DNA of 64,000 nucleotides from Rhodoblastus sp. (GTDB lineage: Bacteria > Pseudomonadota > Alphaproteobacteria > Rhizobiales > Beijerinckiaceae). Under the pieces are notes generated by a model that worked only from the letters and a program-made list of their open reading frames with translations, ran no database searches and had not been told where the DNA came from. The stretch is taken from the NCBI GenBank assembly GCA_047605445.1, contig JASGFP010000002.1, positions 25,483 to 89,482 on the forward strand, read 5' to 3'. Every line of letters begins with the position of its first letter. Position 1 is the stretch's first letter. A program made the translations under genes and the position numbers. Below are positions 7,427-25,491 of the stretch, piece after piece.

Positions 7427-7922
7427 TCGCGCGGGCTACCGCATCGACGATTTCGCGCGCGACGGAACCCTCGCGGCCACGATCGCGCCGCTCGCCGAGC
7501 TCGACGCCGCGCTGGAGCAACGCGACAACAGGCCCATCGGCGTCGAGATCGCCAACAATACGGAAGTGCAGCGGCTTGCGCCGCTGTTCGACCGTCTCGC
7601 GCTGATCGCGATCGTGTTTCCCTCGTTCGGCGACGGTCGCGGCTTTTCGCTGGCCAAGCGGCTGCGTCGCGCCGGATACACGGGCCGGCTGCGCGCGGTC
7701 GGGCCTCTCATTCCCGATCAGGGCGCTTACGCTTTCGCCTGCGGCTTCGACGAGATCGAACTGCCGGACGCCGTCACCGCGCGTCAGACAGAAGCGCAAT
7801 GGCGAAAGGCGCTCGGCGCTATCAGCGCGACCTATCAACCCGGATATTTCCGGCCGAAAAGCATTCTCGAACGCCGGTTCGAGGCGCGGCGCGGCGCATC
7901 GGAGGAGGCGCGGCATGGGTGA
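7413..7922 (+). CDS. DUF934 domain protein (sulfite-reductase-associated oxidoreductase-like)
   Basis: Begins MKLLDRAGYRIDDF and contains FPSFGDGRGFSLAKRLR. It overlaps the cysI stop and the cysH start, the standard cysI-DUF934-cysH arrangement. Confidence 0.75.
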   Translation: MKLLDRAGYRIDDFARDGTLAATIAPLAELDAALEQRDNRPIGVEIANNTEVQRLAPLFDRLALIAIVFPSFGDGRGFSLAKRLRRAGYTGRLRAVGPLIPDQGAYAFACGFDEIELPDAVTARQTEAQWRKALGAISATYQPGYFRPKSILERRFEARRGASEEARHG

Positions 7923-8667
7923 CGAGGCCGCTTCTCTCGACCATGCATTCGCAGAGCTTAATCCGCTCGCACGCCTCAGACTGCTGCGTGCGCAGGTCGC
8001 CGGGCGCATCATTTTGACGACGAGCTTCGGGATCGAGGATCAGCTTCTCACCGATCTGATCTTCGCCAACGATCTCGATATCGAAGTCGTGACGCTCGAC
8101 ACCGGCCGTCTGTTTCCCGAGACCTACAAGGTCTGGTCCGAGACCGAGATGAAATACGGCCAACGCATCCGCGCTTTCTATCCGGATGCGGCCGCGCTCG
8201 AGGAATTGATCGCCGATCAGGGGATCGACGGCTTCTATTTCGGGGTGTCCATGCGCAAGGCCTGCTGCGGCGTGCGCAAAGTGGCGCCGCTCAATCGCGC
8301 GCTCGCGGGCGCGAGCGCCTGGGTGACGGGCCTGCGCGCCGATCAGTCCGCCAATCGCGCCGCAACCGCTTTCGTCGCGTTCGACACGGGCTTTTCCGTG
8401 CTGAAGGCGAGCCCACTGGCCGACATGTCGCGCGAGGCGATCGTGGCCGAGACGGAACGGCGCGCGATCCCGGTGAATATCCTGCACGCCAAAGGCTTTC
8501 CCTCAATCGGTTGCGCGCCGTGCACACGCGCGATCCTGCCCGGCGAGGACGAGCGCGCCGGCCGCTGGTGGTGGGAACAGGACGACAAGAAGGAATGCGG
8601 ACTGCACGTCGCAACGGACGGCGCCATCGTCCCGCGCGCAGGCGCCCCGATCGGAGACCGCCCGTGA
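7915..8667 (+). CDS. cysH: adenylyl-sulfate (APS)/PAPS reductase, thioredoxin-dependent, Fe-S type
   Basis: 250-aa ORF. The Cys pairs CC ([11 protein letters not shown]) and CxxC (SIGCAPCTR), plus KECGLH, are the cluster-binding signature of assimilatory APS reductases. Confidence 0.9.
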
Positions 8668-9566
8668 GCAAACTGACCCACCTGCAATCTCTCGAGGCGG
8701 AATCGATTTTTATTCTGCGCGAGGTCGCCGCGGCCTGCGAACGGCCTGTCCTGCTCTATTCGATCGGCAAGGATTCGGCGGTGCTGCTGCATCTGGCGAT
8801 GAAGGCCTTTGCGCCCGGCAAGCCGCCCTTCCCGCTGCTGCATGTCGATACGACATGGAAGTTTCGGGAGATGATCGAGTTCCGCGACGCGACCGCAAAG
8901 CGACTCGGCCTCGAACTGATCGTGCATACCAACCAGGAAGGCGTGGCCGCCGGAATCAACCCGATCGATTCCGGCTCCGCCGTCCATACCGATGTGATGA
9001 AGACGCAAGGGCTCAAGCAGGCGCTCGACAAATACGGCTTCGACGCGGCCTTCGGCGGGGCGCGGCGCGACGAGGAGAAGAGCCGCGCCAAGGAGCGCAT
9101 CTTCTCGCTGCGCTCGCCCGACCATCGCTGGGACCCGAAGGCGCAGCGGCCGGAGCCATGGCGCGCCTTCAACACGCGCAAGCGCAAGGGCGAGAGTTTT
9201 CGCGTGTTCCCGCTGTCGAACTGGACCGAGGCGGATGTGTGGGACTATATCGCGCTCGAAAACATCCCCGTCGTTCCGCTCTATTTCGCCAAGCGCCGGC
9301 CGGTGGTCGAGCGCAACGGCGCGCTGATCATGCGCGACGACGAGCGGATGCCGCTGTTGCCGGGCGAAGTCCCGCAGATGAAGCTCGTCCGCTTCCGCAC
9401 GCTGGGCTGCTATCCGCTGACCGGCGCCGTCGAAAGTTCGGCGGCCAGCCTTCCCGAGATCATCGCGGAAATGCGTGCATCGCGCTCCTCCGAACGCCAG
9501 GGCCGCGTCATCGACCATGACGGGGCGAGTTCGATGGAGCTGAAGAAGCAGGAAGGCTATTTCTGA
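8664..9566 (+). CDS. cysD: sulfate adenylyltransferase subunit 2
   Basis: GTG 8664 overlaps the cysH stop (GTGA). The product begins [21 protein letters not shown] and contains [13 protein letters not shown] (PP-loop); about 300 aa. Confidence 0.9.
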
Positions 9567-11197
9567 TGAGGCCGAATTTGAAGCTCGTGGACAGAACGGA
9601 CGAGACGACCGACGTGAACGACGTCGCGACCGTCGCCGCGCCGCAGCGCTCGCTTCTGCGCTTCATCACCTGCGGTTCGGTCGACGACGGCAAGTCGACG
9701 CTGCTCGGCCGCCTGCTGTTCGAGACTGGCTCGGTGTTCGACGATCAGCTCGAGGCGTTGAATCGCGACAGCGCGCGCTTCGGCACGACCGGCGAGGATG
9801 TCGATTTCGCGCTTCTCGTCGACGGCCTGTCGGCGGAGCGCGAACAGGGCATCACCATCGACGTCGCCTATCGCTATTTCCAGACGGGCAACCGCGCCTT
9901 CATCGCCGCCGACACGCCCGGCCACGAACAATATACGCGCAACATGGCGACCGGCGCCTCGACCGCCGACGTCGCGATCATTCTCGTCGACGCGCGCAAG
10001 GGGATCCTGCCGCAGACGCGCCGCCATTCGTATATCGTCTCCATGCTCGGCGTGCGGCGCGTCATCGTCGCCGTCAACAAGATCGATCTCGTCGGCTACG
10101 ACGAGAAGGTCTTCCGCAAGATCGAGGAAGATTACAGCGTGCTGGCGGCGCGCCTCGGCTTCGTCGAGACGGACATCATCCCGGTGTCGGCCCGTTACGG
10201 CGACAATGTCGTTTCGCAATCTCCCAACATGCCCTGGCGCAGGGGACGGACGCTGCTCGAACTGCTCGAGACGATCGAGGCCGCGCCAGCGGGCGATTCC
10301 GAGTTCCGACTGCCCGTGCAATGGGTCAACCGGCCGAACCTCGATTTCCGTGGCTTCTCGGGCACGATCGCCTCGGGAGAAATCTCCGTCGGCGACGCTA
10401 TCGTCGCGCTGCCGCGCGGCAAGACTTCCCGAGTGTCCGGCATTCTGGGGCCCTCGGGTCCGCAGGAGAGCGCCGGCGCGGGTGAAGCGGTCACCGTCAC
10501 GTTGTTCGACGAAATCGACATTTCGCGCGGCGATGTGATCCTCAGCGCCGGGTCGCGCGTGCGTCCGCGCCGCCAGATCGACGCGCGCCTGCTGGCGCTG
10601 ACAGAGACGCCGGTGACGCCGGGCCGCAATTATCTCGTCAAGATCGGAACGGCGGTCGCCGCCGCGCGGATCGTCGCGCTGCACCACGCCATCGACGTCC
10701 ACACTTACGAACCGGCGCCCGCCGCAAACCTGCCGATGAACGGCATCGGACTGGCGACGGTGCGCTTCGAGACCGACATCGTCGCCGCCAATTACGCCGC
10801 CTGCCAGTCGCTCGGCGGATTTCTGGTGATCGACCCGCATACCAACGACACGGTCGCGCTCGGCGTGATCGAGCCGCATGTCGATCACGACGCCGAAGCG
10901 CACGACGCGGGCGAGCACGTCCTCGCCACGCTCGAGAGCATTGGCGTGATCGAGCACGATGCGACGCCGGACGACCTGCGCCGACGCGCGATCGAAATCG
11001 CCGCCGGCGCCGCGCTCACGGGCGTCATCGCATTCGCGATCACATGGCGCTTCTGGCTCTCGCTCGCGGCGGTCGGGGCGGATATAGTGCTGCGGCCAGC
11101 GCTCGGGGTAGCCCTGCGCGGCGTCCGCTCCTGGTTGGCGACGCGGCGCAAAGCCAGAGCCGAGTCCGCGCTGACGACCGACGGCGGCGGCATCTGA
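9566..11197 (+). CDS. cysN: sulfate adenylyltransferase subunit 1 (GTPase) with hydrophobic C-terminal extension
   Basis: The ATG overlaps the cysD stop (TGATG). GTPase motifs GSVDDGKST, DTPGHEQY and NKID are present. The last ~100 aa are not CysC and contain two hydrophobic helices. Confidence 0.9.
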   Translation: MRPNLKLVDRTDETTDVNDVATVAAPQRSLLRFITCGSVDDGKSTLLGRLLFETGSVFDDQLEALNRDSARFGTTGEDVDFALLVDGLSAEREQGITIDVAYRYFQTGNRAFIAADTPGHEQYTRNMATGASTADVAIILVDARKGILPQTRRHSYIVSMLGVRRVIVAVNKIDLVGYDEKVFRKIEEDYSVLAARLGFVETDIIPVSARYGDNVVSQSPNMPWRRGRTLLELLETIEAAPAGDSEFRLPVQWVNRPNLDFRGFSGTIASGEISVGDAIVALPRGKTSRVSGILGPSGPQESAGAGEAVTVTLFDEIDISRGDVILSAGSRVRPRRQIDARLLALTETPVTPGRNYLVKIGTAVAAARIVALHHAIDVHTYEPAPAANLPMNGIGLATVRFETDIVAANYAACQSLGGFLVIDPHTNDTVALGVIEPHVDHDAEAHDAGEHVLATLESIGVIEHDATPDDLRRRAIEIAAGAALTGVIAFAITWRFWLSLAAVGADIVLRPALGVALRGVRSWLATRRKARAESALTTDGGGI

Positions 11198-11224
11198 CGT
11201 GACCCCGGCCGGCGATCCGGAACT

Positions 11225-12001
11225 ATGATGATCGATCCGCTCTATTCGCTGTCGGGCGCCGTCGTCGGCCTGATCGTCGGGCTCACGGGCGTCGGCGGCG
11301 GCTCTCTGATGACGCCGCTGCTCGTTCTGCTGTTCGGCGTGCATCCGGCGACGGCGGTCGGGACCGACCTGCTCTATGCGGCCATCACCAAGGGCGCCGG
11401 CACCTTCGTGCACGGGTCGCGGCGGAACGTGGACTGGCGCGTCGTTCGGCTGCTTGCGGCAGGCAGCGTGCCGGCGGCGACGGCGACTTTGCTGGCCATG
11501 TCCTGGAGCGGAACCGCTTCCGCGCAGGTGACGAAGCTCATCGGCGCCGCGCTCGGCGTGGCGCTGCTGCTGACCGCCCTGTCGATCGTCTTCCGGCCCT
11601 GGCTGCTGAAAGTTCGCGGTGAGCGGCCGCCTATGCCGCAGCGCCAGCTGGACTGGACGACTTTCGCCGTCGGCGTGACGCTCGGCGTGCTGGTGTCGAT
11701 GTCCTCGGTCGGCGCGGGCGCGCTTGGCGTGACCGTCCTTCTGATGCTCTATCCGGCGACGCCCGTTGTTCGCATCATCGGCACGGATATCGCCCATGCA
11801 GTCCCCCTGACCTTCGTCGCCGGCGCGGGCCATTGGCTGATCGGGTCGGTCGACGTGCACATGCTGCTGTCGCTGCTGCTGGGCTCGATCCCGGGAATCG
11901 TCATCGGCAGCCGGCTGGCGCCGCTCGTGCATGAACGATTTCTGCGCATGTTGCTCGCGGCCGTGCTCGCCCTCGTCGGGTTCAAACTGCTGGCGGTCTA
12001 G
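11225..12001 (+). CDS. TauE/SafE-family sulfite/anion exporter-like membrane protein
   Basis: 258 aa with 7-8 TM segments. Repeated G-x-G-G-G motif (LTGVGGGSLMTPLL, SSVGAGALGV) typical of TauE/SafE. Last gene of the cys operon. Confidence 0.8.
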   Translation: MMIDPLYSLSGAVVGLIVGLTGVGGGSLMTPLLVLLFGVHPATAVGTDLLYAAITKGAGTFVHGSRRNVDWRVVRLLAAGSVPAATATLLAMSWSGTASAQVTKLIGAALGVALLLTALSIVFRPWLLKVRGERPPMPQRQLDWTTFAVGVTLGVLVSMSSVGAGALGVTVLLMLYPATPVVRIIGTDIAHAVPLTFVAGAGHWLIGSVDVHMLLSLLLGSIPGIVIGSRLAPLVHERFLRMLLAAVLALVGFKLLAV

Positions 12002-12117
12002 GCGCCCGCGGCCGCACGGCCTGCCTTCTGGCGCTGCCGCTATCCGAAATACCGGCTTCCACATTCGGATCGCGGACTCTAGTCTTGGGGCGAGGCCATC
12101 GGAAGAACGGATGGGGC

Positions 12118-12819
12118 ATGGTCGTTCTCGTCAATTCGGGGCCGCGCGCGCCCGCCATCGACAAGGCTGCCGTACTTCGGCAGCACGAATTGTTTTGCGA
12201 GATCGACAAGGAGTCCTGCGACCAGATCGCGGCTTACGCCAAGGTTCGCGAGTTCCGGCGCGACGCCACGATCTTCTCGAAAGGCGACCCCGGCTTCTGC
12301 CTGTTCGCGGTGGTGCGCGGAAGCGTCCTCGTCACCACCTCGTCCAGCGAAGGCAAATGCGCCGTCCTCAATCAGTTCGACACGGGCGATGTCTTCGGCG
12401 AGATCGCCTTGCTGGACGGCCGCCCGCGCACCGGCGACGCGACGGCGCTCGTCGATTGTTCGTTGCTTGCGCTGGAGCGGCGCGACTTTCTTCCGATCCT
12501 CACGAAGAAGCCGGAGATCGCCATCAAGCTTCTTGAAATTCTATCCGGCCGGCTGCGTCGCACGACTGAGCAGGTCGAGGAGCTGATGTTCATGGATCTG
12601 CGCGGACGCCTGGCGAAGACGCTGCTGCGGCTGACGGACGGCGCTGCGAGCCGGTCCGCCGAATTGTCGCAGAGCGAATTGAGCCAGCGCGTCGGCATGT
12701 CGCGCGAGATGATCAATCGTCAGCTCCAGGTGTGGTCGCGCGACAGCGTCATCGAGCTCGCCCGCCGGCGGCTGACGGTGCTGCGGCCGGACGTGCTGGC
12801 CGAAATCGCGTCCCGCTGA
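12118..12819 (+). CDS. Crp/Fnr-family transcriptional regulator (cNMP-binding domain + HTH)
   Basis: Phosphate-binding-cassette-like FGEIALLDGRPRTGDATA and C-terminal HTH SQSELSQRVGMSREMINRQL with a CRP-type R-E-x-x-x-R recognition helix. No N-terminal Cys cluster, so not FNR-like. The first in-frame ATG is 12118; the ORF opens at TTG 12085. Confidence 0.85.
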   Translation: MVVLVNSGPRAPAIDKAAVLRQHELFCEIDKESCDQIAAYAKVREFRRDATIFSKGDPGFCLFAVVRGSVLVTTSSSEGKCAVLNQFDTGDVFGEIALLDGRPRTGDATALVDCSLLALERRDFLPILTKKPEIAIKLLEILSGRLRRTTEQVEELMFMDLRGRLAKTLLRLTDGAASRSAELSQSELSQRVGMSREMINRQLQVWSRDSVIELARRRLTVLRPDVLAEIASR

Positions 12820-12839
12820 TCCCTCCCCAAGCCGCCGAC

Positions 12840-12855
12840 AGTGAGGCGCCTCACA
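12840..12855. promoter_or_regulatory. candidate CRP-type operator aGTGA-GGCGCC-TCACa
   Basis: Perfect 14-bp palindrome GTGAGGCGCCTCAC at 12841-12854. It lies in the 123-bp gap between the crp-family gene and the giant ORF, about 95 bp upstream of ATG 12943. It matches the TGTGA-N6-TCACA core. Confidence 0.45.
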
Positions 12856-12942
12856 GTTCAGGCGCCGGTTCGCAAGCCAGTATCGGCGCCATGGCGCGCG
12901 CCGTTTCACGAAGCGCGTGAGGCAAGGATACCGGGGGACTGC

Positions 12943-15900
12943 ATGCGCCGCGATTTGACGATGAAGACGGGCGGGCTCGCCGGAACATCCGATTTCCGAG
13001 TGCTCGCCAAGATCAAGAGCGGCTTCGTGCCGGCGCTGGACGCGGTGACCTACAAGACGCGCGTGAAACGTGTTCTTCGCGCGCTGCACATCGGCCGCTC
13101 GGATTCGCATGAGCACGAATTGTTCCGCGTGCTTTCCGATGCGGTGGAGCGCGTCGGCCGCATCCATTCGGTCGGCATCGTCGTGCTCGAACCCGAGGAC
13201 AAGGTGCTGCTGACCGTCACTTTCGACGGCTCGTGGGAGGCGTACGTCCGCGTAATCTGGCAGAAGGTGACGCGCCTGCTCGACCTCGTGTTCTGCAATA
13301 CCGAGGACTACGTCGTCGGCTACGAGAATTCGTATGAGAAATGGGGCGAGTGGCTGAAGGCCCACCAGAGCGAGGCCGCCTTTCTCTACGCGACTCCCAA
13401 CGTGACAGTGGACGACGTCCGCTATCTCAAGATGGCGGAGCGTGTGCACCGGCGCGCGGCCGCCGACGAGGCGCAACTGATCACGACGCGCATCCGCATT
13501 CCCTCCGCCGAGGATATAGCCACGAAATCGATCTTCGAATTCCGGGGCTCGGTTCCGGGCGACCCGACAAGCGCCGGCTTCGAGCAGAAGATGAATGTGG
13601 AAGACGCCGGAAAGGCGCCATTCCGCCACGGGGTGCGCGTGCTCGCCGGCATACACAGGCTGTCCGACGTCTATCTGCCTGATACCCACGACGGCGACAT
13701 TCTGCTGCGCGCCGCGCACGAACTGCTGCCGGAATTCGTGCCGATGGTGAAGGGGGCGACCTATCAGCTCGGCGTCCAGCGCGCCAAGCGCCGCTTCGAA
13801 GAGGCGGTGCTGTGGATTCAGGGCAAGGTGGACGAACCGCCCGTCCGGCAATCGCTGCCGAACCCGATCCCCGACGCGCCGCCGCTCGCCGATCCCGCCA
13901 ACGTGCAGGGCGGCATTTTGACGTCCTATCCCGACATCGACCACGGCTGCATGCTTCTGCTCCAGTTCCAGTCCGCCGCCGCCGTGGCCGCCTTTCTCGG
14001 TGCGCTGCAGACGACGACGGAAGCCGACACGCTCGCAGCCGGCGCGATCGCCGCCAATGTCGGATTCACGGTTGAAGGGCTGAGGATGGCGGGTCTGACC
14101 GACGACGAACTCCGCGAGTTGCCGGAAGAGTTCGTGCAGGGCATGGCGATGCGTGCGGGCATTCTCGGCGATGTCAGGATCAATCACCCGCAGCGCTGGC
14201 GCCTGCCCGCCGCCAACTGGTCCGAAGGGATAGACGCCGGAGAGCCGGACGACGCGCAAGCGGCGCCGCGTATCGATCTCAACGCCGTGCATGCGATCGT
14301 GCAATTGCGGCGGCGCGCGACGCCCGAGAGCACGGACGAGGATACGCCGACCGCCCGCGCTCCGCTGATGGAGGCGATGCAGAAGCTGACGGCGGCGCAC
14401 GAGGGCGTCATTCCGCTATCGCTGCAATGGATGCACCGGCTGCGCAATGCAAACAAAGTGGTTGAAGAGCACTTCGGCTTCACCGAAGGCAATTCGGAGC
14501 CAGTGCTGAAGAAGACGGACGCGGGCCGACGCTACTCCAACCAGATCCATCTCGGCGAGATGCTCTGCGGCTATCCCAATCTCGCCGATTCCTCCGACTT
14601 CTACAGCGGCGCTTCCGCGCGTATGCATCCGTTGCTCAAGGACGGCAGCTTCCTCGCCATACGCAAGCTGCGGCAGGACGTGGACGCCTTCGATACCACA
14701 TTGCAGGGCGCGGTCGCCGCCGTCAGCGCACAGGGATTCAACCTCGGCCGCGAAGATCTGATGGGCAAGATCCTCGGCCGCTGGCCAGCCGACCACGCGA
14801 AATCGGGGCAGCCGCTGGCGATCGTCATCGGCCCTGACCCGCTGTCGAACGATTTTCACTTCGACAAGGATCCGAATGGCGCGACCTGTCCGCTGCACGC
14901 GCATATCCGACGCACCAACCCGCGCTTCACGCAGCCCGAGGGCGGCCAGCGACCGCCGCGCATCGCGCGCCGCGGCATGTCCTACGGACCGCTGCACAAT
15001 CGCGCCGAGACCGACGAGGGGAAGAGGAAGGCAAGTCTGGCGGCCGAACGCGGCCTCGTGTTCATGGCCTACAACGCCAGCCTCGGAGAGCAATTCGAGG
15101 TTATCCAGAGCTGGATCGCGGGCGGAAACAGCGCCGGCAGCCATTCCGGCGTCAGCGACCCGCTTCTCGGCCTCGCGGAGCCGGGCAAGAAACGCTTCTA
15201 CCGTTTCGAACACGAGGGCAAGGTCGTGCACATGCCGCTCGACGGCGAAGACAAGCTGCATGTCGAGCCAAGGCCGTTCGTGCGCCTCGAATGGGGCGCA
15301 TATCTCTTCACGCCGTCGATCAAGGCGCTCGGCCTGCTGAAAGAGCGCGCGGCCGCGCGCGACGCCAAGCCATTGCTGCCGTGGACGGCGGAAGCCGGCG
15401 AGGAGAAGATCGCCGAATTGTTCGCATATGAGCGCGCCAACGGCGCGGAAGCGGCGCTCGACGCATGGAAGGCTGTTCTCGAGGATCCGGACTTCGCGGC
15501 GGACTACACGAGCGCGTCCGTATGGGCGGCCATTCGGGAAAATCACGGCGGCGTGCTGCGCACGCCCTTCGGCGTGCTTGTCGCGGACAAGGACATGGTC
15601 CGCGACGTCTTTGTCGACAGGGACGAAGCCTTGACCATCACGGGCTACCTGCCGCGCATGCACAGGTCGTTCGGCGTGCTCTATCTCGGGCTCGATCCCA
15701 ACCAGGAAGATCAAGCCTACGAAACGTGGTCGCGCGCGTGCAACGCGGCGATCATGGCGATCGATCCGCATCAGGCGTTTCTGGGCGCCCGCGCGGCCGT
15801 GCTCGACGCGCTGCAGACGCTCGCGGATCAGGAAAAGGCGGATGCGCTCTACGATCGAGAGAAACGCTGGGAGTTGACCGTCGAGTCGCGAGAACTGGTC

Positions 15901-17568
15901 GAGCCGCTGCTCGCGCATTTCTGTGAGGAATGGTTCGGCATCACGGAAAAAGGAAAGCATTTCAGGCGGGCCGGCTATCGCTGGGACTGGACGATGGATG
16001 AGCCCGCGAATTATCCGGGCCATTTTCTTTCGCCCTCCCGCTACATTTTCCAGCCGCATCCTGGCCGCAGCGTCGAGCGCTACGGCGCGGCGCACGGCCA
16101 GTCGGTGCGCAGCGCGATGGAGGCGTATCTCACCGCGTTCCGCGACGAGATCACGGCGCAGGTGTCGCGCGCCGTGCTCGACTGCCCCGAAGGCAGGGAC
16201 GACATAGATTTCTGCGCGCAGACGATCGCCGGCGCCATGATGGGCTTCATTCCGACGGTCGAAGGCAATCTGCGCCGCATCCTCAACGAATGGCTGCGCG
16301 ATGGCGTGCTCTGGAAATTGCGCGCACGCTACGCCGGCGCGCCCTCACAGGATTTCACCGCTGCCTGCAACCGGCTGGTGAACGATTTCATTCCCGCCTT
16401 CCAGTTGCGTGCGGTTCCGGAATTGATCTGGCGCACCGCTGTCACGTCCACGTCGATCGGCGCCGGTCCGCACAAGGTCCGCATCAAGCCGGGCGACGTG
16501 ATCGTCGCCGGCGCCGTGTCCGCCACGCAGCAATGTCTGACCGAGGGAAGCGGCGAATATCACCATGCCTTCGGCGGCAACCGGCGTGAGAAGGACCACC
16601 CGACGCATGCCTGTCCGGGCGCCGATCCGGCTGTTGCGCTCATGATCGGGTTCTTCAGCGCGCTGGTCGAATCGCCCCTGCCGTTGCGGCCGGGCCCGGG
16701 ACCGCTGACGATTTCGGCTGACGGCGCTGTGCTTGCGACGCCGGCCGTCCGCAAGCCTGTCGCGGCGCCCCGTCATTTCGTGGCCGCAGCAAGCAGCGAC
16801 GGGACGACGCCAATTCTGGTCATCGGCGATTCCTGGCTTTCGGATACGGCGCCCTACCCTAGCCTGCGCGGCGCGCTGGCCGGGCGCGGCTATGTCGACG
16901 AGTTCGATCAGGATTTCGCCTCGCTGGGCCGCTTCCTGCACGAGATGGCGTCGCCCGGAGCGCTCGATCAGGTCGCGCGCTTCTTCGACAATATCGGGCC
17001 GGGCGAGGCGTCTCCGGCCTGCATCGTGCTCGGCGGGGGTGGCAACGACGTGTGCCAACCCGTCTCGAACGTTCCGCTGACCGCGCTCTACCGCATGACT
17101 CGCGACCGCGGCGGACAAGGCGACGCGCTGATCGAGCAAGAGGTCGGCAAGTTCATCGACGAGGAATTGCATGGCCATCTGGCGACCGTCGTCGGACGGC
17201 TCCAGGAAATGACCGATATCCCGATCGTGGTGCACGCCTACGACCATCCGATTCCGAACGGCAGCGGATTCTGGCTCGGCGGCCCGTGGCTGAAACCGAT
17301 CTTCGATTACAGGTCGATGAACGATCTGCCGACGAATACCGCCGTGATGAAGGCGCTCATCGACCGGCTCAATGGCGCAGTCGCGCGCGTGGCGGCGGCC
17401 AATCCGCAGAAGGTCACGCATGTGAACCTGACCGGCACGCTCGCGAACGACGCGACGCTTTGGTCGAACGAGTTGCATCCCACGCGCGAGGGCTACGCGC
17501 TGCTGGCTGAAAAAATGGCCAAGGCGCTACAGGGGCTCGGCATCGGGCAGCCCGCCGCGCAAACCTGA
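12943..17568 (+). CDS. 1541-aa multidomain fusion: unknown N-terminal module + DyP-type heme peroxidase + P450-like heme-thiolate module + SGNH/GDSL hydrolase
   Basis: Single open frame 12841-17568. DyP motifs: QGGIL, FGFTEGNSEP, GSFLAIRKL, PLHAHIRRTNPR, IARRGMSYG, GLVFMAYNASLGEQFEVIQ, GAYLFTPS. P450-like motifs: AGAMMGFIPTVEG, PELIWR, HHAFGGNRREKDHPTHACPG. SGNH motifs: ILVIGDSW, LGGGGND, NELHPTREGY. Start set at ATG 12943 (GGGGGA upstream); GTG 12841 and ATG 12961 are alternatives. Confidence 0.85.
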   Translation: MRRDLTMKTGGLAGTSDFRVLAKIKSGFVPALDAVTYKTRVKRVLRALHIGRSDSHEHELFRVLSDAVERVGRIHSVGIVVLEPEDKVLLTVTFDGSWEAYVRVIWQKVTRLLDLVFCNTEDYVVGYENSYEKWGEWLKAHQSEAAFLYATPNVTVDDVRYLKMAERVHRRAAADEAQLITTRIRIPSAEDIATKSIFEFRGSVPGDPTSAGFEQKMNVEDAGKAPFRHGVRVLAGIHRLSDVYLPDTHDGDILLRAAHELLPEFVPMVKGATYQLGVQRAKRRFEEAVLWIQGKVDEPPVRQSLPNPIPDAPPLADPANVQGGILTSYPDIDHGCMLLLQFQSAAAVAAFLGALQTTTEADTLAAGAIAANVGFTVEGLRMAGLTDDELRELPEEFVQGMAMRAGILGDVRINHPQRWRLPAANWSEGIDAGEPDDAQAAPRIDLNAVHAIVQLRRRATPESTDEDTPTARAPLMEAMQKLTAAHEGVIPLSLQWMHRLRNANKVVEEHFGFTEGNSEPVLKKTDAGRRYSNQIHLGEMLCGYPNLADSSDFYSGASARMHPLLKDGSFLAIRKLRQDVDAFDTTLQGAVAAVSAQGFNLGREDLMGKILGRWPADHAKSGQPLAIVIGPDPLSNDFHFDKDPNGATCPLHAHIRRTNPRFTQPEGGQRPPRIARRGMSYGPLHNRAETDEGKRKASLAAERGLVFMAYNASLGEQFEVIQSWIAGGNSAGSHSGVSDPLLGLAEPGKKRFYRFEHEGKVVHMPLDGEDKLHVEPRPFVRLEWGAYLFTPSIKALGLLKERAAARDAKPLLPWTAEAGEEKIAELFAYERANGAEAALDAWKAVLEDPDFAADYTSASVWAAIRENHGGVLRTPFGVLVADKDMVRDVFVDRDEALTITGYLPRMHRSFGVLYLGLDPNQEDQAYETWSRACNAAIMAIDPHQAFLGARAAVLDALQTLADQEKADALYDREKRWELTVESRELVEPLLAHFCEEWFGITEKGKHFRRAGYRWDWTMDEPANYPGHFLSPSRYIFQPHPGRSVERYGAAHGQSVRSAMEAYLTAFRDEITAQVSRAVLDCPEGRDDIDFCAQTIAGAMMGFIPTVEGNLRRILNEWLRDGVLWKLRARYAGAPSQDFTAACNRLVNDFIPAFQLRAVPELIWRTAVTSTSIGAGPHKVRIKPGDVIVAGAVSATQQCLTEGSGEYHHAFGGNRREKDHPTHACPGADPAVALMIGFFSALVESPLPLRPGPGPLTISADGAVLATPAVRKPVAAPRHFVAAASSDGTTPILVIGDSWLSDTAPYPSLRGALAGRGYVDEFDQDFASLGRFLHEMASPGALDQVARFFDNIGPGEASPACIVLGGGGNDVCQPVSNVPLTALYRMTRDRGGQGDALIEQEVGKFIDEELHGHLATVVGRLQEMTDIPIVVHAYDHPIPNGSGFWLGGPWLKPIFDYRSMNDLPTNTAVMKALIDRLNGAVARVAAANPQKVTHVNLTGTLANDATLWSNELHPTREGYALLAEKMAKALQGLGIGQPAAQT

Positions 17569-17577
17569 CGAGCGCAC

Positions 17578-20500
17578 TCATCCTGCGGCGGCGAGCCGGT
17601 CTGCGTGCCAGTCCATCCCCATGGCGCGAAGCTGCGCGCGCGCATCGTCTGAGGCGGAAGAGCTTGCGTTCAACGCGGCGGCGGTCGCAGCGTTGAGCGC
17701 CGTCTCGCGCCGTGAGCCGCGCAGGCGCGCCGAAAGAGCAGCGCGATTCATCCAGCGCGCGATGTCGCTCGTACGGCCTTCCCTGGCCGCGATCGAGGCG
17801 AGGGCGCGGCTGATCGCCGCTTCGCCCAGCCGCTCGCCGTTGCGTGCGCGCCGGAGAACATGCGCGGCGTAACGCCTCGCGTTCTCGACATCGCCGATTT
17901 CGGCGCAGGCTTCGACCAGCCAGCTATACTGAACCGACACGAAGAATTTGAAGTCGCGGCCTTCCATCCAGCGGATTGCGTCGTGCAGCAGCCGCAGCGC
18001 ATCCGCATCGCCGGTGCGCCGCCAGCGCGCATAACCCGTCGCAGCGCGCGACGCCGCCAGCAGCAGCAGGCCGCGCATATCCTCGGCGATACGGCCGTTT
18101 TCTATGGCGAGGAGTTCGGCCTCGCGCCATGCGCCACGCCATATCAGAGACACGACCCGCCAATTGCTCATGGAATTGGCGACCGGGTGGCTGGAATCGC
18201 CGAGCAGCAATCGCGCCTGGTCGAAACAGGCGTCGGCGCGGACGAAATCGCCGCGATCCGCGAGAATGCTCGCCTCGCAGGACAGCGCGTAGGCGGAGCC
18301 GATGGCGACGCCGCCGCCGGGGCGCGCCGAGCGCTTTTTGGTGACGACGGCTTCGCCGATCAGCGCCAGCGCTTCGTCGTAGCGCCCGGCGGCTGCGAGG
18401 ATTTGCCCGAGCGTGGCGTCGACCTGCGCGATCAGCCGCGCGTCGCCAGCCTTGCGCGCGAGGTCCGCTGCCTCCCGCGCATGTGCGACGCCTTCCCGGA
18501 ACCGCCCGAACGCGTAGCACATATAGCCGAGCCAATAGGTCGCGCGCGCTTCGGCGTCGAGATCGCCGATCCCGCGCGCCAGTTCGGCGGCGCGTTCGAA
18601 CAGGCTCACGTCGTCGCGCAGCGACAGCGGGTCGAAGATGCTGGCCATGCCGAGCTTGTTGACGACGAGGCACCAGTGCAGATCGCGATCGCGGCCGCGT
18701 TCGGCGAGATTGTCCATCGCATCGAGCGCCGCCTTGTATTGCGTGCGCGCGCGATCCAGCGCGAAAGCGGAGGCGGCCTTGTCGCCGGCCTGTTCCGCGA
18801 AACGCGCGGCGGCGTCCCATTCGCCCGCGCCGAAGCTGTGATAGGCCAGCGCCTCGAACGCGTCATCGGGTTCGGCGCCCGCGCCGCCGGGCGCTTGGGC
18901 CGTCAAAACGCGCCTGTGGAGCGCGCGCCGCGTCGTCAGGCCGATCGATTCGTAGACGGAATCGCGCGTGACGCCGTGCTTGAACCGCAGACCGCCGCTC
19001 GCGGCGTCGATATAGAGGAAATCGGCCTCGGCAAGCGCGCGCAGCGTCGCCTGATCCGGCGCACGGCCACAAGCCGCGATCAGCGAACGATAAGGCGCGA
19101 CATTGCCGACGACCGCGGCCGCACGCACGACGTCGGCCTGATCTTCCGGCAATCGTTGCAATCGCGACGTCACCAGCGCGCCGATCCAGCCGCTGCGGCC
19201 CCGCGAGGCCAGAGCCTGCGACAGCTTCTCGGTCGAGGCGAGATGGCACAATTCCTCGATGTAGAGCGGCACGCCGCCGGCGTAATCGTGAATGCGCGCG
19301 ATCAGGAAGGGATCGGCCTGCGGCAGCCAGCGACGGACGGCGCGCGCCGTTTCCGCGCCATCGAAGGGTCGAAGCTCGACGTGCGGCGCGCCGGCGCCCA
19401 GATCAGCGCCTTCATGCCGCGCGCGGCTGGTCAGAAGGACACGCAGGCGAACATCGGCCTGAAGCAGCGCGGACACCAGCCGGCGCGTGGCGTCATCGGC
19501 CCATTGCCAGTCGTCGACGACCAGGGTTGCGCGCCGCTCGCCGGCGAGCGCCAGAACGAAGGCGCAGAGATCGTCGACCGCTCGGGTCGCTGCTTCGGCC
19601 GGCCGAATGTCGGGGCTCGTCACGAGGAGGCCGCGAATGGAGTCGACGCGCGGCCCCAGCGCAGGGCGCCAGGGTTCGAGCGCCGCGCGCGCGAGACCGA
19701 TCGCTTCCTCCGTCGACTGGCCGTCGCGCAGCCCGATGAAGCCGCGCATCATTTGCAGGAAAGGCTGCAGGATGGCGGCGCCGAGATAGTTCTCGCAGCC
19801 GCCGCGCAGGACGACCCCCTCCTCGCCGTCCAGCGAGGCGAGCACTTCTTCCGCCAATCGCGTCTTGCCGACCCCAGCACCGCCGAGGATCACCATCGCG
19901 CGCGGCGCAGGATCAGGATCGGTCACGAAATCGCGCAGCCGGCGAACGATGTCGCCGCGCCCGATGAAAGGCGTCAATCCGCGGCTCGCCGTCGATTCGA
20001 ATCGATTTGCAGCGGCGCTGCGGCCGAGCACGGTATGCACTGTCAGGTCGGGCCGGCCGCCGGCCTCCGGCGGCGCGCCATGCGTGAAGAAATGAGCGTT
20101 CGGACCGAGCGCGTCGCCGCTGGCCAGAATCTCCCCGGCCTGGGCGCGCTGCGACAGGCGCGCGGCGACATTCGGCACATCGCCGACCAGATCGAAAACG
20201 CCCTTTTCGATGTCGCCCGCGGCAATGAGCGCCATTCCGGCGTGGATGCCGGAATGCATCTGCAAAGGCGTCAGGCGCGGCGGCAGGCCTATCGGACGAA
20301 GCGCTGAAACCCGCTCGTGTATTTCCAGCGCCGCATCCGCCGCGCGGCGGCCGTCGTCCTCCCCGGGCTCCGGATAGCCGAAGATGATCGTCGCGCCGTC
20401 GCCCTGCATGCGTGCGATATGACCGCCGCGACTGACAGCCGCCGTCCGGCAAATCTCGCGAAGCTCATGAAGGAGAACCGAAAATTCCTCAGTCTCCATG

Positions 20501-20598
20501 TCGCGCCCAAGCGTCGTCGAGCCGACGAGATCCGTGAAAAGAATCGTCAGGCGACGCCGCACGGGTGTATTCGGCGCTGAGGGGGCGTGGGGGCTCAT
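17578..20598 (-). CDS. class III adenylate/guanylate cyclase domain + P-loop STAND/AAA ATPase + TPR-like repeats
   Basis: 1006 aa. Cyclase motifs at the N-terminus: LTILFTDLVGST, MQGDGATIIFG, GDVPNVAARL. Walker A at ILGGAGVGKTRLAEE. The C-terminal half is a long Ala/Leu/Arg-rich helical repeat region. No HTH is recognisable. Confidence 0.85.
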   Translation of the reverse strand: MSPHAPSAPNTPVRRRLTILFTDLVGSTTLGRDMETEEFSVLLHELREICRTAAVSRGGHIARMQGDGATIIFGYPEPGEDDGRRAADAALEIHERVSALRPIGLPPRLTPLQMHSGIHAGMALIAAGDIEKGVFDLVGDVPNVAARLSQRAQAGEILASGDALGPNAHFFTHGAPPEAGGRPDLTVHTVLGRSAAANRFESTASRGLTPFIGRGDIVRRLRDFVTDPDPAPRAMVILGGAGVGKTRLAEEVLASLDGEEGVVLRGGCENYLGAAILQPFLQMMRGFIGLRDGQSTEEAIGLARAALEPWRPALGPRVDSIRGLLVTSPDIRPAEAATRAVDDLCAFVLALAGERRATLVVDDWQWADDATRRLVSALLQADVRLRVLLTSRARHEGADLGAGAPHVELRPFDGAETARAVRRWLPQADPFLIARIHDYAGGVPLYIEELCHLASTEKLSQALASRGRSGWIGALVTSRLQRLPEDQADVVRAAAVVGNVAPYRSLIAACGRAPDQATLRALAEADFLYIDAASGGLRFKHGVTRDSVYESIGLTTRRALHRRVLTAQAPGGAGAEPDDAFEALAYHSFGAGEWDAAARFAEQAGDKAASAFALDRARTQYKAALDAMDNLAERGRDRDLHWCLVVNKLGMASIFDPLSLRDDVSLFERAAELARGIGDLDAEARATYWLGYMCYAFGRFREGVAHAREAADLARKAGDARLIAQVDATLGQILAAAGRYDEALALIGEAVVTKKRSARPGGGVAIGSAYALSCEASILADRGDFVRADACFDQARLLLGDSSHPVANSMSNWRVVSLIWRGAWREAELLAIENGRIAEDMRGLLLLAASRAATGYARWRRTGDADALRLLHDAIRWMEGRDFKFFVSVQYSWLVEACAEIGDVENARRYAAHVLRRARNGERLGEAAISRALASIAAREGRTSDIARWMNRAALSARLRGSRRETALNAATAAALNASSSASDDARAQLRAMGMDWHADRLAAAG

Positions 20599-20926
20599 AT
20601 CGTTTGGATCAACTCAGTGGGTCGGACTTTTCATCCCGTCTCCTTCGGAGCCGGCGGCGCGCCGCATCCGTCGAATGCCAATGCTACGCGGCAATTCATC
20701 GGATACCTATCCCTGCCGCAGGAATTACTATAGCGAAAGCGCGCGCTGTTTAGACCACGATCGCGCGTCCGAGCGGGGTCGGCGCCCCGCCGGTTCGTCG
20801 GGCCGTCCGATCCGGAAAATTGACGGCGCCGCCATCATCGTCGTCTATTTCGCCAAACTCACTCTGTCCGCACGCCGCCGCCCGTTCGCCAGCCGGCGCG
20901 CATTCGACCCAACGGGCCGCAGCGCA

Positions 20927-21913
20927 ATGATCGACCGATCGCAACGGATTCTTGTCACCGGCGGACGCGGCTTCATCGGCTCGGCGCTTGTCGCCGCGCT
21001 CGCCCAGGCCGGATTTGCGGTGCGCGCGGGCGTGCGTCGGCCGGCTCTGGCTTTGGATGTCGCCGCCGATCTCGACGACGCTGCGCAGACGCGCGCGGCT
21101 GTCGACGGCGCGGCGCTCGTCGTTCACACGGCCTATGGCGAGCCCGGCGCAATGGCGCGGCAATGCGCCGGCCTGCTCGCGGCGATGACGCAAGCGGGCG
21201 CCGACAGCCTCGTTTATTTCAGCTCGATCGCCGTCTACGGCGCGCGCGAGGGCGCCGTTTTCGAACACGACGCCGCCGTCGGCCCGCTCGACGCCTATGC
21301 ATCGGGTAAAGTGGCCTGCGAAGGCCTCGTCCATGCATGGGCCGGCGATCCCGCCCACGCCGACCGGCGCGCAATCATCGTGCGGCCAGGCGTCGTCTAC
21401 GGCGCCGGCAGCCGCTACTGGATCGACCGGCTCTCCCAGCGCATACGCGCGGGCATGTGGGGCGATCTCGGCGCTTCTGGCGAGGGAACGGCGCCGCTCA
21501 TCCATATCGACGATCTCGCCGACCTCTCGATCCGCGCCGCGCAGCGCCTGACGGGGCCGGGCGGCGACACGCTCCCGCGCGTCGTCGCGCTCAACGCGGT
21601 CGGGCTCGAGACGCCAAGTTGGAACGTCTATTTTCGGGCTCTGGCTGCGGCTGTCGGCGCGCCGGCCCTGCGCCCGCTCGACCCGGCGATACTCGCGCGG
21701 CAGGCGCCGCTCGCGCTCGCCGCCAAGGCGTGGCGACGACTCGGACTGCCGGGGTTCGAAAGGCAGGCGCTAATCCCGACGGGCGGCGAACTCGCCGTGT
21801 ATGCGCGCAAAGCGAATTACGACACCGGCGCCGCGCGCCAGCTACTCGACTTTTCCCCGCGCGTGACAATGGCCGAAGGTCTGCGCCGCTCGATACATCA
21901 AGCGCAAGGCTAA
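20927..21913 (+). CDS. NAD-dependent epimerase/dehydratase (SDR) family protein
   Basis: Begins MIDRSQRILVTGGRGFIGSAL (Rossmann GxxGxxG) and has a YASGK catalytic motif. Start ATG 20927 inside ORF 20498-21913. Confidence 0.8.
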   Translation: MIDRSQRILVTGGRGFIGSALVAALAQAGFAVRAGVRRPALALDVAADLDDAAQTRAAVDGAALVVHTAYGEPGAMARQCAGLLAAMTQAGADSLVYFSSIAVYGAREGAVFEHDAAVGPLDAYASGKVACEGLVHAWAGDPAHADRRAIIVRPGVVYGAGSRYWIDRLSQRIRAGMWGDLGASGEGTAPLIHIDDLADLSIRAAQRLTGPGGDTLPRVVALNAVGLETPSWNVYFRALAAAVGAPALRPLDPAILARQAPLALAAKAWRRLGLPGFERQALIPTGGELAVYARKANYDTGAARQLLDFSPRVTMAEGLRRSIHQAQG

Positions 21914-23780: not shown

Positions 23781-23784
23781 CGCC

Positions 23785-25491
23785 ATGACCACCGGCATGC
23801 GCAAGAGCCTCGCCAATTACGGCGACGCGGACTTTTCGCTCTTTCTGCGCAAGGCCTTCATCAAGGCGCTGGGCTATACGGACGAGGCGCTGTCGCGCCC
23901 CATCGTCGGCATCGTCGATACGCATTCCGGCTACAACGCCTGCCACGCCAATGCGCCCGATCTGATCGCGGCGACGAGCCGCGGCGTGATGCTGGCGGGC
24001 GGCATACCCGTACCCTTCCCGGTGATCTCGATCCAGGAGAGCTTTTCCAATCCGACCTCGATGTATCTGCGCAATCTCATGGCGATGGATACGGAAGAGA
24101 TGATCCGCGCGCAGCCGATGGATTCCGTGATCCTGATCGGCGGCTGCGACAAGACCGTGCCCGCGCTGCTGATGGGCGCGGCGAGCGCCGACGTTCCCGC
24201 AATCATGCTCGTCACTGGCCCGATGCTGGCTGGTTCCTTTCGCGGCGAACGTATCGGCGCCTGCACGGACTGCCGGCGCTTCTGGGCGCGTTTTCGCGCG
24301 GGCGAAATCGACGCCGAGACGGTCGAAGCCGCCAACTCGGAACTCGCGCCCACCGTGGGCACATGTTCCGTCATGGGCACGGCGTCGACTATGGCGCTCG
24401 CTGTGGAAGCGCTCGGCATGATGCTGCCGGGCGCGGCGTCTGCGCCTGCCGTCTCCGCCGAGCGGCGCAGGCTTGCGGAACAGACCGGCGCGCGCGCTGT
24501 CGCGATCGCCGCCGAGAAGGTCAAGCCATCGCAGATCATGACGCCGGCCGCCTTCACGAATGCGCTACGGGTGGTGCTCGCGGCCGGCGGGTCGACCAAC
24601 GCCATCATTCATCTGACAGCAATGGCGGGACGACTCGGCATCGGCGTCGATCTGGAGAAATTCGATGCGCTTGGCGGCCAGACGCCCGTGCTCGTCGACA
24701 TGAAGCCGACCGGCGCGCATTACCTCGAAGACCTGCACAAGGCCGGCGGTTGCGCGACGGTGCTGCGCGAAATCCGCGACCAGCTGACGCTCGACTGCAT
24801 GACCATTGCAGGCAGGACGCTCGGCGAGACGATCGACGCTGCGCCGTCATGGCCGCAGGATGTCGTTCGTCCGCGCTCCAATCCCATTCATTCGGGCGGC
24901 AGCATCGCGGTGCTGCGCGGCAATCTGGCGCCGGACGGCGCCATCATCAAACAATCGGCCGCGACCGCCGCGCTGCTGCAGCACGAAGGCCGCGCGTTGG
25001 TGTTCGACTCGCTCGCCGATCTAGCCGCACGGCTCGACGACCCCGCGCTCGACGTGCGCGCCGACGACGTGCTCGTGCTGCGCAACGCCGGACCCAAGGG
25101 CGCGCCGGGCATGCCGGAGGCCGGCTACATTCCGATCCCGAAAAAGCTCGCGAGCGCCGGCGTGAAGGACATGGTGCGCATTTCCGATGCGCGCATGAGC
25201 GGCACGGCCTTCGGCTCGATCGTTCTGCACATCGCGCCGGAATCCGCCGATGGCGGGCCGCTGGCGCTGGTGCAGAACGGCGACCGCATTCGGCTGGATA
25301 CGGCGGGACGGCGGATCGACCTGCTCGTCGGCGACGAGGAACTCGCGACACGTCGCGCGGCGCTGCCGCCGCTGCCGGGCGGCGAGGGCAAGCGCGGCTA
25401 CGAGAAGCTTTACTTCGAGACGGTGACGCAGGCGGGACAGGGCTGCGATTTCGATTTCTGCATTCCCGAGATCGTGCGGACGATTCCGTGA
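23785..25491 (+). CDS. IlvD/Edd-family dehydratase, paralogue 2
   Basis: ORF 23629-25491 with start ATG 23785. Motifs IGGCDKTVPA, CSVMGTASTM and RISDARMSGTAFG. Collinear similarity to the 3444-5177 product. Confidence 0.85.
   Translation: MTTGMRKSLANYGDADFSLFLRKAFIKALGYTDEALSRPIVGIVDTHSGYNACHANAPDLIAATSRGVMLAGGIPVPFPVISIQESFSNPTSMYLRNLMAMDTEEMIRAQPMDSVILIGGCDKTVPALLMGAASADVPAIMLVTGPMLAGSFRGERIGACTDCRRFWARFRAGEIDAETVEAANSELAPTVGTCSVMGTASTMALAVEALGMMLPGAASAPAVSAERRRLAEQTGARAVAIAAEKVKPSQIMTPAAFTNALRVVLAAGGSTNAIIHLTAMAGRLGIGVDLEKFDALGGQTPVLVDMKPTGAHYLEDLHKAGGCATVLREIRDQLTLDCMTIAGRTLGETIDAAPSWPQDVVRPRSNPIHSGGSIAVLRGNLAPDGAIIKQSAATAALLQHEGRALVFDSLADLAARLDDPALDVRADDVLVLRNAGPKGAPGMPEAGYIPIPKKLASAGVKDMVRISDARMSGTAFGSIVLHIAPESADGGPLALVQNGDRIRLDTAGRRIDLLVGDEELATRRAALPPLPGGEGKRGYEKLYFETVTQAGQGCDFDFCIPEIVRTIP

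Follow-up and report, generated by a model that had tools for sequence, protein, structure and literature searches.

Why does a gene for a giant, 1541-residue protein lie between a gene for a Crp-family regulator and a convergently transcribed gene for a class III nucleotide cyclase? The three genes (crp, the giant gene, and the cyclase gene) are found in a 64-kb contig stretch of Rhodoblastus sp. (hereafter, the window; coordinates are window positions unless a locus is named). Soil-dwelling members of the Alpha- and Betaproteobacteria have dozens of class III cyclases, along with many Crp paralogs, and, to our knowledge, the signal, receptor, or target is known for almost none of these. A STAND-type cyclase that is tied one-to-one to a single target, with a matching Crp and operator, would make the role of one such cyclase directly testable. 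An earlier note on this DNA had proposed a three-part module consisting of a cyclase, a receptor of cyclic nucleoside monophosphate (cNMP), and a large effector enzyme, a proposal that is supported here by the linkage of the cyclase and giant genes, the conservation of an operator box, and the residues of the Crp. Comparison across about 60 other genomes refined it: the cyclase-giant pair is near-invariant over two proteobacterial classes and the box is kept in nearly all alphaproteobacterial loci, but a strict three-gene unit is not universal. The probable answer to the opening question is that the locus encodes a self-contained cNMP-Crp circuit dedicated to one target, the giant gene; the overall case rests on sequence comparison and structure prediction.

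The cyclase gene and the giant gene are a conserved pair

The giant gene (12943-17568, plus strand) and the cyclase gene (17578-20598, minus strand) converge, and their stop codons (TGA at 17566-17568 and, as TCA on the plus strand, 17578-17580) are separated by a 9-nucleotide (nt) spacer (17569-17577), exactly as the earlier note reported; no terminator was found between the two stops in the window. A profile search with the giant protein against contigs from one genome per species produced 54 loci (1.08 Mb), which come from metagenome-assembled genomes (MAGs) of Rhodoblastus and Methylobacteriaceae, many Bradyrhizobium, other Alphaproteobacteria, and Burkholderiales (Rhodoferax, Polaromonas, Methylibium, Ideonella, Ramlibacter, Pseudaquabacterium). 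The presence or absence of the cyclase gene in these loci was established by tblastn; the GC3-based gene caller overlooked the cyclase gene in several of them. A full-length cyclase ortholog (40-85% identity), convergent with the giant gene and adjacent to it on the downstream side, was detected in 46 of the 48 adequately flanked loci, a linkage that spans Alpha- and Betaproteobacteria.

Only 8 of the 54 loci lack a convergent downstream cyclase gene. In six of these, which were left out of the 48 (L012, L015, L027, L046, L052, and L053), the contig ends within the giant gene or at most 1.4 kb past it. In L043, the cyclase gene instead precedes the giant gene, in the same orientation. In L040, tblastn detected no cyclase within the 10-kb downstream flank; the giant-gene match in this locus (10001-13269) is truncated (to residue ~1117, in two pieces), and a CRP-type box with one mismatch is retained at -159. 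This locus, the only amply flanked one lacking a cyclase gene, looks like a decaying copy of the giant gene. Two metagenome loci, L055 and L056, provide additional cases of the cyclase-giant pair, and a look-up from the cyclase side found the giant gene next door in three of three cases (Bradyrhizobium sp. I71, Piscinibacter sp. HJYY11, and the ENA metagenome contig L059, where the giant gene is called in fragments).

Across the loci, cyclases closer in sequence to the window cyclase go with giant proteins closer to the window giant protein (r = 0.96 between the two identities). The two stop codons are a median of 8 nt apart; their spacing falls within -55 to +50 in 39 of 46 loci and is negative, with overlapping 3' ends, in 17. 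The genes outside the pair vary from lineage to lineage. The conserved linkage, co-varying identity, conserved spacing, and differing outer neighbors indicate that the cyclase gene and the giant gene are a two-gene cassette inherited together, and the two are very probably linked functionally. Convergent transcription through near or overlapping 3' ends without a terminator may additionally couple the expression of the two genes negatively.

Many Bradyrhizobium species encode a shorter form of the giant protein, about 1270 residues long, that ends after the P450-fold domain and has no GDSL hydrolase (L017, L018, L020-L022, L024, L031, L039, L042, L047; proteins P0058-P0082). The convergent cyclase gene is still found downstream of these shorter forms.

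A conserved putative operator box upstream of the giant gene

The 123-nt gap between crp and the giant gene contains the CRP-type palindrome that the earlier note had pointed out, AGTGAGGCGCCTCACA at 12840-12855 (AGTGA-GGCGCC-TCACA, with no strand assigned), 21 nt past the crp stop and with its center ~95 nt before the giant-gene ATG. When the window was scanned with the consensus TGTGA-N6-TCACA, allowing at most one mismatch, this was the only match; taken alone, the window box is not significant, given that 0.63 matches are expected per window and at least one match was obtained in 47 of 100 shuffles. The same scan of the 1.08 Mb of giant-gene loci yielded 30 matches, of which 23 are located within the 250 nt before the giant gene, a stretch that makes up 1.2% of the sequence. 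By these counts, the position of the box combined with its conservation across loci is far beyond chance.

The box is a conserved island in diverged upstream DNA (38-40% mean column identity). All 10 Rhodoblastus-clade loci have the half-sites AGTGA and TCACA unchanged, and their spacers read GGCGCC, GCCGCC, GCCGTC, TGCGCC, GACGCC, CGCGTC, or TCCGCC. Perfect boxes of the form TGTGAA....TTCACA are located at -92 to -109 in 9 loci without crp within 10 kb, and at -101 in L055, which does have all three genes; in many Bradyrhizobium loci, the box is degenerate and present once or twice, for example as TGTGGGCCAGTTCATA and TGTGAGCCAGATTACA. Altogether, a box upstream of the giant gene is kept in nearly all alphaproteobacterial loci, including about 28 Bradyrhizobium-type ones without an adjacent crp.

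Alignment of the upstream regions revealed a second conserved block, TCGCAAGCCAGTATCGG (12870-12886, plus strand in the window), that includes a -10-like hexamer, CAGTAT, at 12878-12883. A hexamer of the form NANNNT (CAGTAT, CAGAAT, CAGAGT, CACAGT, or AATAGT) starts 20-22 nt after the box in most of the alphaproteobacterial loci, mostly at 22 nt, as in the window. The center of the box is ~30 nt before the start of the hexamer and would be near -42 relative to a predicted transcription start at ~12890, from which we infer the geometry of a class II CRP-dependent promoter. In the window, no canonical sigma-70 -35/-10 promoter was found ahead of the giant gene or of the cyclase gene, and the absence of such a consensus match fits this geometry. 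It is likely that the giant gene is under the control of a Crp-family protein that acts at the predicted box.

A distal CRP-like box, at about -214 to -246, was also observed in L009, L010, L012, L013, L017, L020, L021, L024, L027, L031, L036, and L047. In six of these loci (L010, L013, L020, L021, L027, and L031), the distal box co-occurs with a proximal one at about -90 to -104. Each of these boxes, distal or proximal, is followed after ~22 nt by a hexamer of its own, a pattern suggestive of promoters that are duplicated or arranged in tandem. In L056, a perfect box, TGTGATCCGTCTCACA (422-437), is located ~380 nt upstream of crp and may reflect autoregulation; the window has no equivalent.

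The regulator

As described in the earlier note, the regulator gene (crp, 12118-12819, plus strand) precedes the giant gene on the same strand, and its product contains a cNMP phosphate-binding cassette motif, FGEIALLDGRPRT. Translation from the ATG at 12118 gives a protein of 233 residues that is the same in length and sequence as the database protein P0121, by which the start was set. The protein has the domain set of the CRP/FNR superfamily, an N-terminal cNMP-binding beta-barrel and a C-terminal Crp-type winged helix-turn-helix (HTH), with Pfam matches to cNMP_binding (73 bits, cut-off 27.5, E 1.5e-20) and HTH_Crp_2 (45 bits, cut-off 27, E 7.8e-12); its best solved relatives are Clr of Sinorhizobium (S.) meliloti (7pza, E 5e-29) and the CRP of Mycobacterium (M.) tuberculosis (3d0s). 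Because the score against the NCBIfam CRP equivalog (PRK11753) is 94 bits, compared to the cut-off of 266, the regulator is classified on sequence as a CRP-like paralog rather than an ortholog of CAP.

The residues of the regulator are those expected of a cNMP receptor with CAP-type DNA recognition. In CAP, the cyclic phosphate is contacted by G71/E72/R82/S83. The cassette of the regulator, FGEIALLDGRPRTGDATA, aligns with FGEMALLDGQPRSADATA of Clr, with G, E, R, and T (the latter in place of S) at the positions of Clr G85/E86/R95/S96, which contact the cyclic phosphate (PMC10127613). The recognition helix, SREMINR, follows the CAP-type pattern R-E-x3-R, the CAP residues R180, E181, and R185 being those that read TGTGA (PMC10187061). 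From these residues, the regulator is expected to bind a cNMP and to read TGTGA; the apparent fit between its CAP-type helix and the CAP-type box is independent of the synteny evidence.

A crp gene directly upstream of the giant gene and on the same strand was identified in every Rhodoblastus-clade locus with an upstream flank (68-90% identity), as well as in L045 (55%), L055 (product taken to be P0138, 65% identical), and L056, so that the adjacent crp recurs in four alphaproteobacterial lineages. The outer flanks of L055 and L056 differ, and the two fall on separate branches in a neighbor-joining tree of the giant protein, L055 being closest to the Bradyrhizobium group and L056 to the Rhodoblastus clade. 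The simplest reading of this distribution is an ancestral alphaproteobacterial triad from which the crp adjacency was lost in the Bradyrhizobium-type lineages; in these, the box that remains is presumably used by the product of a crp at another site in the genome.

In Burkholderiales, a different Crp paralog (26-32% identity) is encoded near the pair in 8 loci (L025, L026, L033, L034, L037, L048, L052, and L058), about half of those from this order; it is located before the giant gene in some loci and past the cyclase gene in others. These paralogs keep the cassette FGE..L..D...RSA, and most keep the R-E-x3-R helix. Judging by these motifs, cNMP-type regulators of two subfamilies have been recruited beside the same pair in two bacterial classes. 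A small protein with a LuxR/GerE HTH is often encoded beside the Burkholderiales Crp, upstream of its gene in L026, L034, L048, and L052, beyond the cyclase gene in L025, L033, and L037, and at 17251-18671 in L058.

Paralogs of crp from the same subfamily as that in the window (56-57% identity) also adjoin other cyclase genes, in L060 (7001-14651), L061, and L062 (7001-10204). The neighbor in L060 and L061 encodes a 1067-residue cyclase-AAA_16 protein and is followed by convergent genes for an FAD-oxidoreductase, a radical-SAM protein, and a 1166-residue ferritin-like protein; in L062, it encodes a 615-residue cyclase-TPR protein. A CRP-type box is located just past the crp stop in L060 (at 7743) and L062 (at 7811, a perfect match). 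These arrangements suggest a wider family of putative crp-cyclase cassettes.

The cyclase-STAND-TPR protein

The domain composition that the earlier note had read from the sequence, a cyclase fused to a P-loop STAND ATPase and helical repeats in a protein of 1006 residues, was recovered by domain searches. The Pfam Guanylate_cyc domain matches residues 16-162 (40.7 bits, cut-off 21.9, E 2.5e-10), and the cyclase domain (residues 14-165, nt 20104-20559) aligns to CyaB of Pseudomonas (P.) aeruginosa (3r5g, E 1e-12) and Spirulina CyaC (1wc0). It is followed by AAA_16 (residues 210-383, nt 19450-19971; 82 bits, cut-off 32.6, E 9e-23) and by putative helical/TPR repeats that extend to the C-terminus; the TPR_12 match in the window protein, at 24.8 bits, is below the cut-off of 30.1, and the orthologs carry precomputed matches to TPR_12, TPR_MalT, and TPR_2. 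The 1006-residue protein has no Pfam match to GerE or another HTH domain.

Conservation of the functional residues was counted over 41 orthologs of the cyclase. The metal-binding aspartates D23 and D67, the transition-state asparagine N143, the Walker A lysine K245 (GGAGVGKT), and the Walker B aspartates D362 and D363 (LVVDDW) are each conserved in 41 of 41, and the substrate aspartate D136 in 40. Given that the metal-binding and substrate residues, N143, and the Walker motifs are kept in 40-41 of the 41 proteins, the cyclase domain looks like an active enzyme under selection. Two positions depart from the canonical pattern. The purine-specifying position, normally lysine, is R63 in the window protein and arginine in 38 of 41 orthologs, so that the Arg63 + Asp136 combination is neither the Lys/Asp pair associated with ATP nor a Glu/Cys-type pair associated with GTP. 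The transition-state arginine, R147, is retained in the window, its clade, and three Burkholderiales loci (11 of the 41 orthologs have Arg at this position) and is replaced by His in 27, by Asn in 2, and by Gln in one.

A putative dedicated circuit and its alternatives

The computed evidence, namely the domain content, the conserved catalytic, ligand-binding, and DNA-reading residues, the near-universal linkage of the cyclase and giant genes, and the conserved box with its hexamer, favors the following chain of events. The soluble, cytoplasmic STAND protein would sense a ligand through its C-terminal TPR/helical domain, and nucleotide-dependent oligomerization of the STAND module would bring the N-terminal class III cyclase domains together as active dimers that produce a cNMP. 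The product would most likely be cyclic AMP (cAMP), with specificity made uncertain by the arginine in place of the purine-specifying lysine. The cNMP would then load the Clr/CRP-like regulator, whose gene directly precedes the giant gene, and the regulator dimer would bind the TGTGA-N6-TCACA-type box near -42 of an activator-dependent, class II-type promoter, turning on the synthesis of the giant enzyme. Four points of this chain are inferred: that the effect is activation, which class the promoter belongs to, what kind of signal is sensed, and that the cyclase feeds the Crp. On the last of these points, the balance tips only modestly towards the neighboring cyclase being the source of the cNMP for the Crp.

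Several observations weigh against such a circuit. No recognizable box was found upstream of the giant gene in Burkholderiales, either in alignments or in relaxed half-site scans with 4-8-nt spacers, and in the window, no box precedes crp or the cyclase gene even when 3 mismatches are allowed, so that no feedback loop is visible in the window sequence. None of the ~28 Bradyrhizobium-type loci contains a Crp-like open reading frame (ORF) within 10 kb. The orthologs with His147 may be weak or altered cyclases, and because an arginine occupies the purine-specifying position, the product and the rate of the cyclase are not predictable from its sequence. Finally, the host organisms encode many cyclases and Crp paralogs, and the cNMP of the Crp need not come from the neighbor.

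The alternative that fares best keeps the functional cluster but dispenses with the linear pathway: the cyclase protein would be coupled to the giant enzyme at the level of proteins or metabolites, as a substrate or product sensor, a scaffold, or a regulator, with its output directed elsewhere or with weak catalysis, and the Crp and its box would follow the general cNMP pool. We consider this a possible but rather unlikely explanation. Its appeal is that the cyclase gene stays by the giant gene without an adjacent crp in Bradyrhizobium and without the box in Burkholderiales; this persistence implies that the pair is the conserved core and the Crp facultative. The replacement of the transition-state arginine by histidine in 27 of the 41 orthologs and the numerous Crp paralogs and cyclases in the carrier genomes point the same way. 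However, retention of both metal aspartates, Asn143, and Asp136 in 40-41 of the 41 orthologs is unexpected for a non-catalytic domain; moreover, cNMP-type regulators from two Crp subfamilies were recruited beside the pair in two proteobacterial classes, and outside this locus, members of the subfamily of the window Crp are found with other cyclases.

The dedicated circuit could also be closed into a sensor-enzyme unit, a more elaborate proposal to which we assign a distinctly low probability. Here, the TPR domain would sense a compound of lipid origin that the giant enzyme uses or forms (perhaps an oxylipin-like molecule or the hydroperoxide of a fatty acid), the cyclase would respond with a cNMP that might be non-canonical, given the Arg/Asp specificity pair, and the Crp would elicit the production of more enzyme, with the overlapping 3' ends serving as a transcriptional-interference brake. 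The combination of a Crp, a STAND-cyclase, and a large oxidative enzyme would then be a general, as yet undescribed class of metabolite-gated cNMP modules, with L060 as a second example. If real, this class could explain the dozens of cyclases in rhizobia and related soil bacteria.

The two remaining explanations are both very improbable. Under the first, the three genes are unrelated neighbors, the palindrome is a chance occurrence or the terminator of crp, and crp serves the upstream sulfate genes or distant targets. A one-mismatch box is indeed nearly expected by chance in a single window, the box is merely 21 nt from the end of crp, and a cysDN/tauE-type operon with the same orientation precedes crp. 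Against this stand the near-universal linkage of the cyclase and giant genes and the conservation of the box in loci where no crp lies upstream; we rejected the palindrome as a crp terminator given that no terminator-like site was detected there and that the box is kept where no gene ends upstream. Membership of crp in the upstream sulfate-assimilation operon was likewise rejected, the synteny being limited to the Rhodoblastus clade, and L045, L055, and L056 keep the crp-giant-cyclase order with different flanks. The second, an anti-phage system of the Pycsar/Avs type in which a STAND/TPR sensor and the cyclase make a nucleotide that activates a toxic lipase/peroxidase, could draw on the STAND + TPR architecture, which is common among defense proteins, and on weak domain-level PADLOC matches (of the cyclase domain to PycC at E 3.6e-11 and of the cNMP-binding domain to PycTIR at E 1.5e-9), but the cNMP-binding protein is a DNA-binding Crp rather than a TIR or transmembrane effector, the giant protein has neither a PADLOC match nor a cNMP-binding domain, the neighborhoods consist of ordinary metabolic and transport genes rather than defense islands, and the pair appears to be inherited together through whole genera; the PADLOC matches being generic domain matches only, we rejected assignment to a defense system.

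Comparison with known systems

A close parallel is the Clr cascade of S. meliloti, in which the cyclases CyaD1/CyaD2/CyaK produce cAMP that acts through Clr on smc02178 (PMC10127613, PMC5498481, PMC4222275). Both systems combine an alphaproteobacterial Crp-like cNMP receptor, class III cyclases that supply, or in the window would supply, the signal, and a target of unknown function. They differ in DNA recognition, the Clr helix R-P-K-V-N-R reading HGTYHC-N4-GRWACA, whereas the regulator in the window has R-E-M-I-N-R and a CAP-type box, TGTGA-N6-TCACA. The cyclases of the Clr cascade are CHASE2 membrane receptors, in contrast to the soluble STAND-TPR protein of the window. Clr has many targets, whereas the window has one box with at most one mismatch in 64 kb, in front of one conserved target, and the pairing of cyclase and target is fixed across two proteobacterial classes, unlike in the Clr system.

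The architecture of the cyclase protein itself resembles that of the Rv0386-type proteins of M. tuberculosis, in both, a class III cyclase at the N-terminus is joined to a P-loop STAND-type ATPase and to helical/TPR repeats, which in the window protein are putative. Rv0386 has non-canonical residues at the substrate-specifying positions, as does the window cyclase, and we know of no conserved partner enzyme described for the Rv0386 family. Rv0386-type proteins (class III cyclase + ATPase + TPR + LuxR HTH; PMC2447327) carry a fused C-terminal LuxR/GerE HTH, whereas the predicted DNA-binding output in the window is a separate, cNMP-dependent Crp; in the Burkholderiales loci, a separate LuxR-HTH protein is encoded nearby, compared to the fused HTH of the Rv0386 type. 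A further architectural relative is the TOMM kinase/cyclase fusion (TIGR03903), whose cyclase + AAA + TPR portion aligns over residues 14-964 of the window protein (E 9e-59); however, the score of 199 bits is far from the 706-bit cut-off, the window protein has no N-terminal kinase domain, and there are no TOMM genes nearby.

With the class II promoters of the Escherichia (E.) coli CAP/CRP, the window shares the TGTGA-N6-TCACA operator, the R-E-x3-R helix, the G-E...R-[ST] cAMP contacts, a box centered ~42 nt upstream of the (predicted) start, and the lack of a -35 element. The E. coli protein is global and fed by a class I cyclase, whereas the regulator in the window is local, remotely related, and encoded beside a class III STAND cyclase. 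A Pycsar effector consists of a cNMP-binding domain fused to a killing domain of the TIR or transmembrane type, whereas the counterpart in the window carries a Crp HTH. Relative to all these systems, the features that appear new from the comparison of sequences are a soluble STAND-type cyclase encoded tail-to-tail with one giant, predicted multi-heme/lipase gene over two classes, a matching local Crp, and a conserved alphaproteobacterial promoter architecture.

The giant protein

The mechanically called ORF of the giant gene starts with the GTG at 12841; the real start is the ATG at 12943. The resulting product, 1541 residues long, has the same sequence as P0001, a protein of a Rhodoblastus sp. 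MAG, and all homologs align with it from its first residue onward. Proteins of this family are widespread in Bradyrhizobium, Rhodoblastus, and many Burkholderiales. As delineated with Pfam, NCBIfam, PDB profile searches, AlphaFold, and Foldseek, the protein is a fusion in which an N-terminal region of ~330 residues, with no fold assignment, is followed by a DyP peroxidase domain, a P450-fold domain, and an SGNH/GDSL hydrolase.

The DyP domain (class C/D, residues ~330-800) was identified by the PDB profile search (E 6e-42) and by Foldseek (8re3, TM 0.80; AlphaFold model pLDDT 77). In its distal motif, FGFTEGNSEP, the window protein has Glu where the family consensus has Asp (GXXDG-type), and HAHIRR, the candidate motif for the proximal His, is invariant. 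For residues 800-1260, no Pfam or PDB sequence match was found, and the fold became apparent only from structure prediction: the region ~815-1265 is predicted to adopt the cytochrome P450 fold (AlphaFold pLDDT 89; the Foldseek matches to P450BioI, CYP199A4, and CYP134A1 have a probability of 1.0 and TM values of at most 0.70). An invariant loop, FGGNRR..HPTHACPG, lies where P450s carry the cysteine ligand, in a loop of the form FxxGxxxCxG (F1210, G1211, G1212, R1214, H1222, C1224, P1225, and G1226 are all invariant), and the I-helix region, AGAMMGFIPT, has no usual acid-alcohol pair; the domain is a putative heme binder. The C-terminal SGNH/GDSL hydrolase (residues ~1290-1541) is recognized by Pfam at 36.9 bits (cut-off 32.9). 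That a lipase joined to two heme domains might oxidize the lipids it releases is speculation. Literature searches for a DyP/GDSL/P450 fusion or for the crp-giant-cyclase cassette found nothing relevant, and the combination of the DyP, P450-fold, and SGNH domains in one 1541-residue chain would thus be an undescribed type of enzyme. The proposed circuit would offer a route to the conditions under which this enzyme is synthesized and hence to its function.

Flanking genes

No riboswitch or other known RNA was detected across 11900-21100 (no Rfam match at E ≤ 0.1). Directly upstream of crp and on the same strand, the window contains a sulfate-assimilation gene set (5756-12001) that encodes a sulfite/nitrite reductase, a DUF934 protein, a CysD-like member of the PAPS-reductase family, a CysN-like GTPase, and a TauE/SafE exporter, and whose synteny with crp is confined to the Rhodoblastus clade. 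The region is flanked by two paralogous ILVD_EDD (dihydroxy-acid/6-phosphogluconate dehydratase) genes, 3438-5177 and 23782-25491, both on the plus strand and spaced by ~20 kb.

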